Origin: an uncultured bacterium
GTDB taxonomy: Bacteria > Oederibacteriota > Muellerivitia > Muellerivitales > Muellerivitaceae
DNA: 29,906 nucleotides
Assembly: GCA_964469185.1 (NCBI GenBank)
Contig: CAYXYA010000001.1
Location: forward strand, 1-29,906
Direction of reading: 5' to 3'
Below the pieces are notes generated by a model, which did no database searches, had not been told where the DNA came from, and was given only the letters and a program-made list of their open reading frames with translations. Below, in pieces: positions 8,201 to 29,906 of the stretch. The translations under genes were made by a program, and so were the position numbers. Within the stretch, counting starts at the first letter, position 1; each line of letters begins with the position of its first letter.

Positions 8201-11142
8201 TTCCGCCAACGGCTATGACCTATGACACTTTGGATCGCAACACTAGAACGACTATTCCGGATAACACATTTATGACCATTGATTACGCCATTGCGCCCGA
8301 CAACTCCGCTGTCGAGCGATTCCATACCCTGGTGACCGACGCTAAGCACAACAAGAAAAACACCTACCGTGACGTGAGGGAACTCATCACCAGCGTCGTG
8401 GAGCACAACCCCTCAACTGCTGGCCAGGCGAATATCATTACGAAGTATGAATATGATCCCATTAAGCAGATAACGCATGTGAAAGATGCCGGGGGCAACA
8501 AGACGCTGGTGTCCTACGACCTTTTGGGTCGTAGGACTTCCATTGACAACCCGGATACAGGTTTAGTGACCACGAAATATGATGCGGCCTCCAATGTTAT
8601 CTCAAAGCAAACGGCGAACTTGGCGCATGAGCACAAGTTCATCAACTATGACTATGATGCCAATAATCGGCTTACTTCAATTAAGTACCCCGATAACCCA
8701 GGCAACAACGTCACCTATACCTATGGTGGGCCTAGCGCGGCCTACAACGGGGCCAACCGGATCACCCTGGTCAAGGATGCTAGCGGCACCGAACAGCGCC
8801 AGTACGACGCCTTGGGAAATATCATCCAGGAAACCAAAACCTTGCCTCCCACCAACGGCATGCCGACCTCGAGCTATACCACCGCGTTCCAATACGACAC
8901 TTGGAACCGCATGATGGCCATGCTCTATCCGGATGGAGAACGAGTTACTTATGGCTATGATTCGGGTGGGTTGGTGAACAAGGTGGATGGAGATGTTAGT
9001 GGAGTTCACTTCCCGTATGTCCAAAGACTTGAGTATGACAAGTTCGAACAGAGGATTTTCGTTCAGAACGGCAATGGCACGAAGAGTACCTATCAGTACA
9101 ACGCCGACAACCGCAGGCTTCACAATTTGCTGCACAATTCATCCGTTGACGGCATCTTCCAAAACCTGACCTATACCTATGACGTGGTGGGGAACATAAC
9201 TGACCTCGACAACCCAGTTCCTATCACCTCCAGAGACATGGGTGGCCCTGTGAAAACGCATTATGGGTATGACGATTTATATCGTCTAACGTCTGCCGTA
9301 GGCCATTTCCGTGGGACGGGTGACGCGAAAGGTTGGAAGAGCGACTACACCCTGAAGATGGACTACGACACTATCCACAACATCACGGAAAAGAACCAGC
9401 ATGTGACAGGGCAGTTCACGGGTGATACTCCCAAAGACCGCATGAAGGGAACTTATGATTACAACTACAAGTACACGGGCACGCCTCATGCGCCGACCGT
9501 TATTGGCAATCGTAGTTTCACTTATGACCTGAACGGCAACCAACTTGGGTTCGAGGAAAAGGGACACGGGTCGGATCGCACAATTTCCTGGGATGAGGAA
9601 AACCGTATCCAGTCCATCAAGGATGGAAGCCAGCAGGGAGGCAAATCAACCACCACAGGGCTGACCTTCCAATATGACGACGCTGGACAGCGCATCATCA
9701 AGGAACAGGGCGAAGACACGACCGCCTATATCAACCAGTTCTTTACGGTGAAACAGCCCATGAAGAACAGTGGGGCAATCGAAAGTAAGCATATCTTCGC
9801 GGGAAGTACCCGTATCTTGACCCAGATCGTTCATGGCGAAGGAAGCGCCGCTGTTGCGGGGGGCGGCAGTGGTGCCAGCTCAACCTCCAGTTCAAGCTCC
9901 TCAACGGGAATAACCCACGGGCACGGCGTTCATTCAACTAACCATGGTGCCAAGAATAATAGCAATGGAAATGGTGGAGGCGGACTAGGCAACAACACGG
10001 GAACAAATTTTGTGACTATTACAACCGATACGCCGGTTTTTGAGGGTTCGTCCTTGAACTCACAAACGTTGGGTAATGTGGTTCAGTGCGATGTGCTTAC
10101 CCTGTTGACCCTGACGCCTGACAACCAAGGGTTCTACAAGGTGGAGTTTGGCGGCAAGGTGGGTTTTGTGCCAGCGGCTGATGCGGTGGTGGGCACGTCG
10201 CCCAGTTGTGAAGGCACATCGGGAAGCGTGTTACCCAAAGACAACTTTATCTTCTACTACCACACCGACCACCTGGGAAGCACAGGGTACATGACGGACT
10301 GGCAAGGGAAGGTGCGTGAAAACCTACAGTACACACCCTTTGGGGAGACATGGATCGAGCAACGCCGAGGGATGAAAATTTTTCCAGATTTTGAGTTCAC
10401 CTCAAAAATTTTGGATTCTGAGACGGGGCTTTACTATTACGGCGCACGTTATTACGACCCGAGGACAAGCGTGTGGCAGTCAGCAGACCCTGCATTACTT
10501 AAATTTTTGCCAGGTGCAAAAATTAAATATGTTCCGAAATTTGAAAGAGAACCAAATTGGAAATGGGTAATAGGTCTCCCAGGAGAAGGAGGGGTTTTTG
10601 AGCCTTCAAATTTAGGGTTGTTTTCATATGCGGGGAATAATCCTCTTAAATATGCTGACCCGAATGGTGAATATATATTATCAGCTTCCTTTATGGCTGC
10701 TTACCCAAATGCGTCGAAGGAAATAATCAAACTTATTACAAAGTTAAATAAGTTAAAACTAGAAGTTTATAAACAAGTAACTGGAGCGAGCGCTAAAGAA
10801 GTAAAAACCGCTATGACCGAAGGAAAGGGTCCGATAATTACTGGCAGCTTCATCCCAAAATCTTCAGAAGCGCCAAACGGTGCATATGGCCAACAAATAG
10901 ATTCTGTTCTTATGTTGGATATTAAAAGTACATTAGATAAATACGAAAAGGGCGAAATCTCAACAAAGTTGTTTGATGCAACTGTCGAACATGAAACGGC
11001 CCACTACCTTGCTCAAAAACATGGTTTGGAAGATTCGAGTGAAAAGGGAAAACATGAACGAGGAAATGATTACGAGATGGGTGTTTACAAAGAAATAACT
11101 AATGAATCCAATTCCCCTGTCGAAAAAGAAAAGGACAAATAG
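5269..11142 (+). CDS. FG-GAP repeats, TcdB_toxin_mid-like region, YD repeats, Rhs core and C-terminal metallopeptidase toxin (segment 3)
   Basis: Four D(L/V/I)NGDG(Y/L)PD repeats; YDRFERDFLGYG; many YD motifs; core YYHTDHLGS...TGLYYYGARYYDP...NNPLKYADPNG. Confidence 0.9.
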   Translation: MPFTVDTSPDITVFAVPYRGWAVAGYNGNRSRNAAPVDESLLALPSSAPSDFTDPSNASNMKAYFFIPDAIKGRWRGPAGDSWAAAISMSSTRAGEENVDVPDPSKFGGSGTPVHVPGIIRLSNTTQGQLSISAPGGVLPSGFDLGAGVSRGGSAGTLDFNDLNGDGYPDVVGNKNVQYTLPNGGLDSQVATGVVDPNNVLTSQLRSSDLLSGSVNADASSIPGQNANGKGRVPPLTLAQVDQSLKGFQMQPLGFNGSLGLNQADEKQELMDVNGDGLPDILTLQSIGGQDHLMVRYNLGYKFTTSAEDWGVFKINSNQGDTESGGVNLGFNVDHYSFAGGLNVNVNHFNVSESLVDLNGDGLPDHVRQDGGTLRVSFNTGHGFTSEVKWQGGSSDISKGEGNSLGAGVYATIYIPIPIPFAPFKIVINFGFDGAQDMSRQRAMFQDINGDGYPDQLTSDKEGDLTAHLNKTGKTNLLKVVHRPLGATITLDYKRNGNTFAQPHSHWDLAKVVVFDGGQNQNTANTFGQHGADYQVTKYSYFRGLDKQVPAQPINVYDRFERDFLGYGAVTETQMDTTDLDGSSLDSATPYRRVIREYLNTNIYEKGLMTKETTDDVTAGLTSPSPFLEADNTYQLVDVDAGGTINQSDISLHHPQQVIFPQAVTMTKKFFEGGTGEIDTFQTFTYDQFGNVVNYFDNGNSNDAGTQVMATISYLPDGNPYLAGLPTTILVTDNTNTTLRRREAVYDISTGNLKIVRQYIDGTHTAETVMTYDNSNGNLLTTTAPANLNNQNYQLNYLYDTTVQTYPALVTDNPLHYTSSMAYDLRFGKPVSQVDENSKLITMTYDPFGRTVTIVGPFETGPDTQVPSSYTIAFDYHPDVSVPYAHTAHFDNQHPGDPIETILFTDGLKRVIQTKKDDAVALSAGVLPTDVMTVSGRVVFDQVGRTIQQYYPITEPKGSVFTENAMLNINYDSDTSGVPPTAMTYDTLDRNTRTTIPDNTFMTIDYAIAPDNSAVERFHTLVTDAKHNKKNTYRDVRELITSVVEHNPSTAGQANIITKYEYDPIKQITHVKDAGGNKTLVSYDLLGRRTSIDNPDTGLVTTKYDAASNVISKQTANLAHEHKFINYDYDANNRLTSIKYPDNPGNNVTYTYGGPSAAYNGANRITLVKDASGTEQRQYDALGNIIQETKTLPPTNGMPTSSYTTAFQYDTWNRMMAMLYPDGERVTYGYDSGGLVNKVDGDVSGVHFPYVQRLEYDKFEQRIFVQNGNGTKSTYQYNADNRRLHNLLHNSSVDGIFQNLTYTYDVVGNITDLDNPVPITSRDMGGPVKTHYGYDDLYRLTSAVGHFRGTGDAKGWKSDYTLKMDYDTIHNITEKNQHVTGQFTGDTPKDRMKGTYDYNYKYTGTPHAPTVIGNRSFTYDLNGNQLGFEEKGHGSDRTISWDEENRIQSIKDGSQQGGKSTTTGLTFQYDDAGQRIIKEQGEDTTAYINQFFTVKQPMKNSGAIESKHIFAGSTRILTQIVHGEGSAAVAGGGSGASSTSSSSSSTGITHGHGVHSTNHGAKNNSNGNGGGGLGNNTGTNFVTITTDTPVFEGSSLNSQTLGNVVQCDVLTLLTLTPDNQGFYKVEFGGKVGFVPAADAVVGTSPSCEGTSGSVLPKDNFIFYYHTDHLGSTGYMTDWQGKVRENLQYTPFGETWIEQRRGMKIFPDFEFTSKILDSETGLYYYGARYYDPRTSVWQSADPALLKFLPGAKIKYVPKFEREPNWKWVIGLPGEGGVFEPSNLGLFSYAGNNPLKYADPNGEYILSASFMAAYPNASKEIIKLITKLNKLKLEVYKQVTGASAKEVKTAMTEGKGPIITGSFIPKSSEAPNGAYGQQIDSVLMLDIKSTLDKYEKGEISTKLFDATVEHETAHYLAQKHGLEDSSEKGKHERGNDYEMGVYKEITNESNSPVEKEKDK
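9260..9287 (+). other. attL-like junction: ATTATGGGTAT-GACGAT-TTATATCGTCT, inside the rhs coding sequence
   Basis: Identity with copy 2 begins exactly at G9271; the upstream bases differ from those at 19279. Confidence 0.75.
10669..11142 (+). other. Rhs C-terminal toxin domain, HExxH zincin metallopeptidase (Tox-MPTase3-like); identical copy at 20678-21151
   Basis: Follows the DPNG autoproteolysis motif (10657-10668). HETAH at 10990-11004, then ERGNDYEMGVY. The region is AT-rich relative to the core. Confidence 0.75.
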
Positions 11143-11143
11143 C

Positions 11144-29277: not shown

Positions 29278-29305
29278 ACACGATAAAAGACGATCTGTAT
29301 CGGTT
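29278..29305 (+). other. attR-like junction: ACACGATAAAA-GACGAT-CTGTATCGGTT
   Basis: Element left arm plus core, then diverged rhs sequence. The right arm keeps TATCG (CGATA on the other strand) in the same register. Confidence 0.75.
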
Positions 29306-29906
29306 AACGACGGCCAACGGTTCTTTCCGCGGCATGGGCAACGCCAGGGGATGGAACAGCAATTACACCCTGAAGATGGACTATGACGCTATCCACAACA
29401 TCACCAGGAAGAACCAACATGTTATTGGCCAGTTTGCGGGTGACACCCCGAAAGATCGCATGAAGGGAACGTATGACTTCAAGTATGCCTATGGGAATGA
29501 CCTAGGTGGAGTTTTCCGTCCTCACGCGCCCCTACAGATTGGGAAACGTGATTACAGCTATGACTTGAATGGCAATCAGTTAGGGTTTGATGAAAAAGGC
29601 GGGGCGGACCGGAGCATCATTTGGGATGAGGAAAACAGAATCCAGTCCATCAAGGATGGAAGCCAGCAAGGCGGCAACTCACCCAATACCGGTACTGATT
29701 TTGTATATAACGACCAAGGGGCGAGAGTACTCAAGGTCAAGGGCGATGACATAACGGCTTATATCAACCAGTTCTACACGGTTAAACAACCCAAGAAGAA
29801 CACCGGCGCGGTCGAGAGCAAGCATATCTTCGCGGGTAGTACCCGTATTCTTACCCAAATTGCGCATGGTGAAGGCAATGCGTCTATCACCGGCGGGGGG
29901 CAGTAG
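29289..29906 (+). pseudogene. Diverged alternative rhs 3' fragment (tip B), displaced downstream of the element; frame stops at 29904-29906
   Basis: DDLYRLTTANGSFRG... aligns with tip A at about 70-75% aa identity (manual count), starting at the same GACGAT core. Confidence 0.85.

Follow-up and report, generated by a model that had tools for sequence, protein, structure and literature searches.

An integrative plasmid-like element that probably installs Rhs toxin tips by in-frame site-specific recombination

How does an rhs gene come to carry one toxin tip joined in frame to its delivery part while a second, related tip lies displaced downstream, beyond genes for replication and recombination? 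This question is raised by contig CAYXYA010000001.1 (assembly GCA_964469185.1) of an uncultured bacterium. The window analysed is the whole 29,906-bp contig; the metagenome-assembled genome (MAG) from which it comes is fragmented (2.58 Mb in 533 contigs, 82% complete). Within a gene of Rhs/Tc-toxin type the window holds a 10,009-bp unit, present twice, and we consider it likely that this unit is an integrative plasmid-like element that installs Rhs tips by site-specific recombination.

The repeat was delimited by a script comparison, in which positions 9271-19285 and 19280-29294 matched as a single exact run of 10,015 bases with a period of 10,009 and no mismatches, equivalent to two full 10,009-bp units plus the 6-bp sequence GACGAT. 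This hexamer is the only sequence common to the three junctions. At 9271 host 5' sequence meets the tip carried by the unit, tip A (...CATTATGGGTAT-GACGAT-TTATATCGT); at 19280 the end of the unit, here called the arm, meets tip A again (...CACACGATAAAA-GACGAT-TTATATCGT); and at 29289 the arm meets a different tip, tip B (...CACACGATAAAA-GACGAT-CTGTATCGG). The features concerned are the following.

9260-9287, plus strand: attL, with a poor host left arm (ATTATGGGTAT), the core GACGAT and the right arm TTATATCGTCT.
19269-19296, plus strand: attP-type junction, ACACGATAAAA GACGAT TTATATCGTCT, in which spacer and right arm form the codons DDLYRL.
29278-29305, plus strand: attR, with the element left arm ACACGATAAAA, the core GACGAT and the resident right arm CTGTATCGGTT.
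19280-29288, plus strand: second identical 10,009-bp unit, reflecting a true tandem dimer or the passage of an assembler round a circular form.
29289-29906, plus strand: displaced tip B fragment, with 74% DNA identity to tip A, ending at the contig end.

The second unit could have arisen by the assembler going twice round a loop, as a SPAdes-type assembler that walks a graph loop twice because of its coverage would yield such a contig. A tandem dimer, and an integrated copy together with a circle, fit the contig equally well.

The reading frames agree with this arrangement at both ends. The GAC at 9271 is codon 1335 of an open reading frame (ORF) spanning 5269-11142, so the resident gene continues in frame into tip A, for a product of 1957 aa. 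Similarly, the GAC at 29289 lies in frame with the open frame 29196-29906, so that deletion of both units would give HYGY-DD-LYRLTTANG in frame. An earlier note made from the letters alone (the original prediction) had given the three junctions as host 5' part to tip A, arm to tip A and arm to tip B, each across GACGAT, and had taken the hexamer for the in-frame Asp-Asp of a seamless chimera; the junctions read exactly so, and the frames at 9271 and 29289 agree. Its description of the unit as opening with 1.87 kb of an rhs 3' end agrees with the script comparison and with the ORF and domain data. That the unit closes with a recombinase/primase backbone was also correct, but the non-coding arm that it placed there is just ~106 bp long (19174-19279), and three genes stand between the recombinases and the arm.

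The sequence at the middle junction has the layout of an Xer-type site, that is, two inverted arms of ~11 bp around a centre of 6-8 bp. Positions 19269-19296 form an 11-6-11 inverted repeat, complementary at 9 of 11 positions, that lies exactly on the boundary between arm and tip A; as an 11-6-11 repeat with at most two mismatches has a calculated expectation of ~1.3e-4 per position, its coincidence with the junction is not attributable to chance. Analogous sites were found in 13 relatives. The resident right arm in tip B has 7 of its 11 positions as in tip A. The two tips are 74% identical over ~600 nt and share identical stretches of 29, 20, 17 and 16 nt deeper in, and tip B opens with a core homologous to tip A and in register with it, as in Rhs C-terminal displacement. 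The middle junction contains no tip-B letter, and attR contains no tip-A letter beyond GACGAT. With no hybrid tip letters on either side, the exchange must have occurred within 6 bp, the size of an Xer central region, and this interval is the 5' edge of the displaced tip homology; exchange at variable points of the core, of the type described by Jackson, was not seen in the window. The attL/attP/attR pattern of the original prediction therefore finds support in the 6-bp core, the dif-like palindrome at the junction, the presence of two recombinases and a primase, and the in-frame fusion.

The unit contains the following features.

9271-11142, plus strand: tip A, in which the shell end and Rhs core domain (~465 aa together) precede a Tox-MPTase3-like C-terminal domain.
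11102-11626, plus strand: immunity candidate of 174 aa, overlapping the end of the toxin gene; no family match.
11944-12339, minus strand: XRE/Cro-CI type repressor (HTH_3, E=8e-12), divergent from the primase gene.
12358-12446, no strand assigned: three 11-6-11 palindromes with one mismatch each, between the divergent XRE and primase genes.
12635-15082, plus strand: replication protein of 815 aa, with a DnaG-type (Toprim) core, a central P-loop (SAAGKS) and a C-terminal end like a winged helix-turn-helix.
15252-16367, plus strand: Xer-like tyrosine recombinase A, 371 aa (Phage_integrase, E=3e-41); R, K, HxxR, H and Y present.
16364-17356, plus strand: Xer-like tyrosine recombinase B, 330 aa (Phage_integrase, E=7e-44); full catalytic set; its start overlaps the end of A.
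17415-17930, plus strand: FliG_C-like ORF, a small cargo gene.
18133-18516, plus strand: DUF2283 ORF, a small cargo gene.
18781-19173, minus strand: ORF of 130 aa, with homologues in the same place in the related loci L006, L011, L014 and L028.

The Tox-MPTase3-like match in tip A is weak (E=4e-4, below the Pfam cut-off), and the toxin and immunity part is AT-rich (35-39% GC versus 50-57%). The repressor, which adjoins the primase gene in relatives too, is RstR-like below the family cut-off (NF041951, 69 bits versus 80), and the palindromes beside it are likely to be its operators, a putative assignment made from their position. As a single sequence the 815-aa protein gave no match in Pfam, NCBIfam or PDB searches. 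A profile of 11 homologues, among which SAAGKS and DE are invariant, matched a DNA primase (PDB 2au3, E=8e-20), and the nearest protein atlas clusters carry Toprim_2 and MTBMA_p00010; a DnaG/Toprim primase core and a P-loop NTPase are thus combined in one protein, as in primase-helicase replicons. Both recombinases have the tyrosine recombinase fold and the catalytic R-K-HxxR-H/W-Y residues, which appear in the alignment as STGIR/STGMR, GKGxKDR, HDLRH/HTFRH, LGH and QIY. Their scores against the XerC and XerD models (TIGR02224/TIGR02225) were 219-250 bits compared to cut-offs of 330-335, and they are therefore Xer-like rather than orthologues of the chromosomal pair. The exact protein sequence of recombinase B was not on record in a search for encoding contigs, and no Rfam family matched in positions 1-19900. 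Across the backbone (12400-18600) the coding strand had a GC skew of +0.16 to +0.32 whereas the host part was close to 0; this skew may reflect one-directional replication or transcription of the element.

Sequencing runs provided a view of the junctions that did not depend on the published assembly. Four groundwater runs from one study hold parts of the element, and their assembled Logan contigs were examined. One contig of 1,816 nt from run X2 follows 18446-19279 and then continues with 9271-10252 (834 + 982 nt). In run X1 a contig extends over 16796-19309 and another starts exactly at 9271, as at a branch node, the boundary between arm and tip A being crossed by k-1; an X3 contig has the arm followed by tip-B letters. 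Since contigs from X1 and X2 cross from arm to tip A, that junction is not an artefact of the MAG assembler.

The same organisation was found elsewhere. A search with the primase recovered 29 loci in species-representative genomes and 80 in metagenomes (109 in all), spread patchily over several phyla; the genome loci came, by record title, from candidate division FCPU426, Nitrospirota and several deltaproteobacterial lineages, among them Desulfobacteraceae, Syntrophaceae and Syntrophorhabdus, and no relative was found in the viral contig collection. The gene order XRE (minus strand), primase, XerA and XerB is kept in the relatives, and the Rhs tip upstream of XRE differs in its C-terminal domain from locus to locus, which is what the original prediction had expected of homologous backbones. 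Sixteen of the 18 genome loci with enough sequence have an Rhs tip fragment ~1.6 kb or less downstream of XerB, a count that represents our reading of motif scans. An 11-6-11 palindrome opens the displaced tip frame in 13 of the 38 loci with at least 1 kb of downstream sequence; in most its consensus is approximately ACCGGATTAWT-GTNNNA-AATRATCCGGT, which encodes xxNNPxNxxDPxGL, a conserved motif before the toxin domain. In L017, L022, L029 and L011 the homology between upstream and downstream tips begins at the palindromic site, and in L021 and L024, two paralogues within a single genome, it is the point at which the homology between the elements stops.

In the closest group, L005 and L006 (59% primase identity), the junction (x-GACGCGAATGG) is at the Asp codon of a YD repeat and is preceded by a conserved arm, TGGAGCACCATC. 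The rhs frame is open through the left junction in the window as well as in L005 (1749 aa), L009 and L012. The right ends of the elements lie at the YD Asp codon (L005/L006), at PTYDPFGR (L105) or, in more distant groups, at NNPxxxxDPxGL; since these are all conserved Rhs codons, the ends away from the repeat core that would have spoken against the original prediction were not encountered. Its idea that all tips start at the same codons was right for the YD-repeat Asp of L005/L006 and wrong for the other subgroups, which use other Rhs codons.

Some of the related loci have a more complicated structure. Positions 4880-21830 of L013, a 217-kb Nitrospirota contig, comprise an rhs gene of full length and a single complete element. 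There are also at least four orphan cassettes of tips, interspersed with XRE gene remnants. The cassettes at 15196, 18592 and 21603 follow a conserved leader (GCTTGACTTG...TACACCTAYGAT), and that at 4886 shares only TACACCTAYGAT. The locus looks like a stack of decayed insertions; it was rejected as a model for in-frame fusion, as the orphan cassettes have their own ATG behind the non-coding leader. In one FCPU426 MAG the displaced tip of one locus and the rhs sequence before a second element (L005 16722-16905 and L012 7062-7245) are 97% identical. The two elements have 92% backbone identity and both contigs break inside them, and they are probably two different elements stacked in tandem in one rhs locus.

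Circular relatives were also recovered. Two metagenome contigs, L105 and L153, have terminal overlaps typical of circular molecules. L105 is a unit of 8,123 bp (127-bp overlap) with a single tip, the frame of which opens at PTYDPFGR inside a 9-bp inverted repeat. L153 is a unit of 11,052 bp (123-bp overlap) with two tips, one of which stands behind a perfect repeat, AAAGGATTATT GTCCTA AATAATCCTTT. A plasmid of the cultured strain Lonsdalea populi N-5-1 (NZ_CP072857.1, L051), closed at 11,289 bp, encodes a primase homologue with 35% identity over 97%. It also has genes for one XerC, an HTH regulator, SymE and the pair RelE/DinJ. Of its two Rhs tip cassettes, which carry endonuclease toxins, one has a tip that starts at TCCCTAT GACCCG ATAGGGA, a small palindrome over DPIG codons. 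Leptospira and Enterobacter are further cultured carriers. The circles with two cassettes suggest that an element may acquire a further tip, perhaps when it excises through a neighbouring site. At 7459-7980 of L105 a HicB/HicA-like pair, read from the translations, occupies the slot of the FliG_C-like and DUF2283 genes; what lies at this position behind the recombinases seems to vary from one small module to another, and these may be addiction systems.

An occupied and an empty allele could be compared in the closed genomes of two Ralstonia solanacearum strains. The Po82 megaplasmid (L052) carries Rhs, tip, XRE, primase, one Xer gene and displaced tips, and IBSBF1503 (L053) has the uninterrupted allele. 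The Po82 insertion (L052 4423-14381) measures 9,959 bp and lies between the two copies, 95% alike, of an rhs core repeat of 1,088 bp. The pair, examined as a possible clean attB, was rejected as proof of site-specific exchange because the switch from host to element lies inside the repeat, where no palindrome was found. In some distant relatives, at least, the carried core fragment itself may mediate integration.

The gene that the unit interrupts in the window is of Tc type. Its resident part, with what precedes it, comprises three features.

1-1671, plus strand: upstream ORF that runs in from the contig start; its matches (F5/8 type C and carbohydrate-binding-like) are weak; TAG at 1669.
1681-5235, plus strand: SpvB-domain protein (Pfam SpvB, E=2e-22), the N-terminal part of a TcB-like protein.
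5269-9270, plus strand: resident 5' part of the Rhs/TcB-TcC-like gene, with FG-GAP, TcdB_toxin_midN and RHS repeats, ending ...HYGY.

The matches to Pfam SpvB, FG-GAP, TcdB_toxin_midN and RHS_repeat and to TIGR03696, followed by a variable C-terminal domain, are those of a Tc-toxin BC-type Rhs cocoon. With regard to a TcA-type partner, the 1.7 kb upstream in the contig holds a single ORF with weak F5/8 type C matches. The matches obtained with the SpvB protein were Tc-like genes, 36-40% identical and mostly from actinomycetes. Among 40 relatives searched, orthologues of the resident gene were present in G020 (50% identity over the query) and G021 (51%, last 140 residues), the remaining matches being generic Rhs proteins of 23-42% identity. 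Both orthologues (G020:C69 and G021:C12) read through F(R/G)YD(G/D)LYRLT, indicating that this motif is a conserved position of the gene family, and no backbone proteins were found around them within the fetched ~20 kb and 13.6 kb.

The reading frame of the toxin gene is interrupted in the window, by TAG at 1669-1671 and TAA at 5233-5235, the next ATG being at 5269. In G020:C69 the SpvB part, Rhs body and tip form a single open frame of 3344 aa, so the gene in the window is either split into separate genes or bears nonsense changes. In the frame that would fuse tip B, a TAG occupies the last three bases of the contig (29880-29906 region), just after a G-run and level with the point at which tip A passes into a Gly/Ser-rich linker; a frameshift, a genuine truncation or an error at the contig end could each account for it. 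No further part of tip B turned up in the MAG.

On the reading that we favour, the element, equipped with an XRE repressor, a DnaG-type primase/P-loop protein and its own XerC/D-like pair, would have a dif-like 11-6-11 attachment site in which GACGAT and the right arm double as the opening codons (DDLYRL) of an rhs 3' module that has no promoter and is carried together with an immunity gene. Recombination with the same conserved codons in a chromosomal Rhs/Tc-type gene would insert the element, and the delivery part already in place would gain an in-frame fusion to the shell end, toxin and immunity gene of the element; the previous tip would be moved downstream and lie silent behind the reconstituted site. 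The sequences themselves establish the anatomy of the unit, the confinement of the crossover to 6 bp, the junction of arm and tip A in contigs built from reads, and the repeated occurrence of the design among relatives. The two recombinases would catalyse the exchange, a free replicating circle would exist in this organism, excision would restore tip B, and the element would presumably move between cells.

Several results weigh against this reading or limit it. The resident stop at 5233 and the TAG in tip B mean that function of the chimera is not assured. No relative in the collections exceeds 63% identity in the primase, and the YDDLYRL site therefore has a single known example; a clean 11-6-11 palindrome is missing in 25 of the 38 loci, and the left arm of the inferred attB is poor, at 2 of 11 positions. 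No transfer genes were found, which leaves spread from cell to cell unexplained. In Po82 the host/element switch lies 100-170 bp inside the 1,088-bp repeat, and judged by its position such a crossover would fit homologous recombination or later gene conversion. Neither the exact attB string, in the genome contig collection searched, nor the start of tip B, in the metagenome contig collection searched, was found. Indirect signs of a replicating circle are the junction of arm and tip A in contigs, the circular relatives and the word depth of element contigs, which was 7.4-11.2 compared to 5.2-6.8 for most host contigs listed (a ratio of ~1.5-1.7, one host contig, 6811-7526, reading 9.93), but word depths are not copy numbers. 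The check proposed with the original prediction, for a circle junction and an empty site, succeeded in its first half, the 19269-19296 junction being present in contigs, although in short reads a free circle and a tandem dimer look alike. As for the second half, the four runs (~5x depth) contained no loose end at 9276 and no empty-site contig, and at this depth a missing empty-site contig says little. The expected empty rhs allele in related genomes failed to appear, none being found for this gene in reads or databases.

Four other explanations were considered. Plasmid Xer sites such as cer and psi exist, and the Xer pair might serve to resolve multimers at the palindrome, with the element entering by Campbell-type homologous recombination via RecA. 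This route resembles the proposal of Jackson et al. (2009), whose model included such circular intermediates (PMC2935791), and the Po82/IBSBF1503 crossover, which lies inside the 1,088-bp shared core and not at its edge, is as it would predict. However, hybrid tips would then be expected, and the crossover in the window is confined to 6 bp despite the 74% likeness of the tips and the identical runs of 29, 20 and 17 nt further in. In at least 13 divergent loci, moreover, the palindrome marks both where the element ends and where the tip fragment has its 5' end, and a resolution site has no reason to overlap conserved Rhs codons; we regard this route as unlikely. The same applies to a simple tandem duplication in the chromosome, arising from the two GACGAT copies through microhomology or replication slippage, which would need neither circle nor recombinase and would allow the element to be immobile now. 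Tandem duplications at short repeats are common, the contig has exactly two head-to-tail copies, and the depth ratio is near 1.5-1.7. For this to be so, the end-points would have to hit by chance both the start of the rhs homology and a dif-like palindrome, the single-copy ancestor would still be an element inserted in frame at this place, and circular relatives exist, all of which makes it improbable.

A switch owned and programmed by the host, alternating tips within one lineage in the manner of a shufflon or rAID, would be in keeping with the L013 arrays, where tip cassettes each stand behind the same leader, and with known recombinase-linked immunity arrays (rAID, PMC12247911; Zhang 2012, PMC3482391). 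We think it very unlikely, since the unit has its own primase/P-loop replication protein and repressor, the GC skew of the backbone (+0.2-0.3) differs from the near 0 of the host, the spread over several phyla is patchy, and the G020 and G021 orthologues have no backbone protein in the fetched stretches. Least probable of all, to a degree that we would hardly entertain it, is that paralogous rhs genes and an unrelated plasmid were wrongly assembled into one contig: the MAG is fragmented and built from short reads, and rhs genes are rich in repeats, but an independent assembler gave the junctions of the arm with tip A and with tip B in three runs, and the same architecture occurs in contigs of 157-237 kb, the isolate names of which suggest long reads, and in closed cultured genomes.

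Beyond the site-specific integration that we favour for the window, a wider reading has in our estimate somewhat less than an even chance, namely that a small self-replicating family is a general vehicle of Rhs/YD tip exchange across phyla. Its members would have one or two Xer-like recombinases and att sites in the YD repeat or in the NNPxxxxDPxGL codons, and repeated insertion combined with excision via neighbouring sites would build displaced-tip arrays and capture resident tips. Such a history would account for the two cassettes in each of the circles L153 and Lonsdalea plasmid, and for the array in L013.

Few bacterial weapons vary as much as Rhs and related polymorphic toxins, and the gain of tips with old tips kept silent has so far been explained only by a hypothetical homologous-recombination model (PMC2935791). 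If correct, the mechanism proposed here would supply a physical vehicle and a testable mechanism for tip exchange, and would also explain why assemblies break at rhs loci. In the literature searched, no description of an element inserting in frame in rhs was found. To the class of tip-swapping elements the window adds read-level evidence for the joined form (circle or tandem), a target ~465 codons upstream of the toxin, such that part of the shell is exchanged too, and a host gene of Tc-type BC rather than a type VI secretion system effector.

How does such an element compare with known systems? Temperate phages and islands can insert in the 3' end of a gene and provide a replacement end, as phage 21 does in icd. 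The present case is similar in that insertion is inside the coding region and the end supplied by the element keeps the frame; there function is restored, whereas here another toxin domain and an immunity gene are brought in. Likeness to integrons lies in promoterless cassettes captured by a tyrosine recombinase behind a resident expression signal, and the two-cassette circles (L153, Lonsdalea plasmid) hint at cassette accretion. Here, however, a whole replicon integrates, the fusion is translational and no attC hairpins were seen; membership was rejected, as the recombinases score 104 and 141 bits against TIGR02249 (cut-off 265) and cassette hairpin sites were not seen. The Lonsdalea plasmid NZ_CP072857.1, of which no description was found in the literature searched, shares a homologous primase, an HTH regulator, an Xer-type recombinase and tip cassettes at a small palindrome, but it has a single recombinase, SymE and RelE/DinJ genes and two cassettes, and is a free plasmid in a cultured gammaproteobacterium.

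Recombinases have been linked to immunity genes before. XerC/D genes adjoin polyimmunity loci (Zhang et al., 2012; PMC3482391), rAID-1 consists of one recombinase linked to orphan immunity arrays (Ross et al., 2019, preprint 10.1101/471110; PMC12247911), and a 2026 preprint cites Xer systems adjoining poly-immunity clusters. These systems share with the element a tyrosine recombinase with toxin/immunity cassettes and conserved intergenic sites, and arrays are present in L013. [quoted passage not shown] The integrative mobile elements exploiting Xer (IMEX), including CTX phage and the gonococcal genetic island, recombine at dif-like sites (cited in PMC10210955). The 11-6-11 site with a 6-bp centre and one well-kept and one degenerate arm is common to both, as is an RstR-like repressor (below the cut-off here). 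Whereas IMEX rely on the XerCD of their host and insert at its site for resolving chromosome dimers, the element has its own pair and an in-frame target in a toxin gene; membership was rejected on the grounds that it encodes two recombinases and targets rhs coding sequence. The nearest precedent is Rhs C-terminal displacement itself, with its orphan tip arrays (Jackson et al., 2009, PMC2935791; Poole et al., 2011, PMC3150448), where, as here, a new tip and immunity gene are joined to the rhs body and the old tip lies downstream with a piece of core. The Jackson model invokes homologous recombination with core fragments of variable length and postulates a circular intermediate with no integrase (PMC2935791); the locus described here differs in having a defined carrier with its own recombinases and a fixed 6-bp core.

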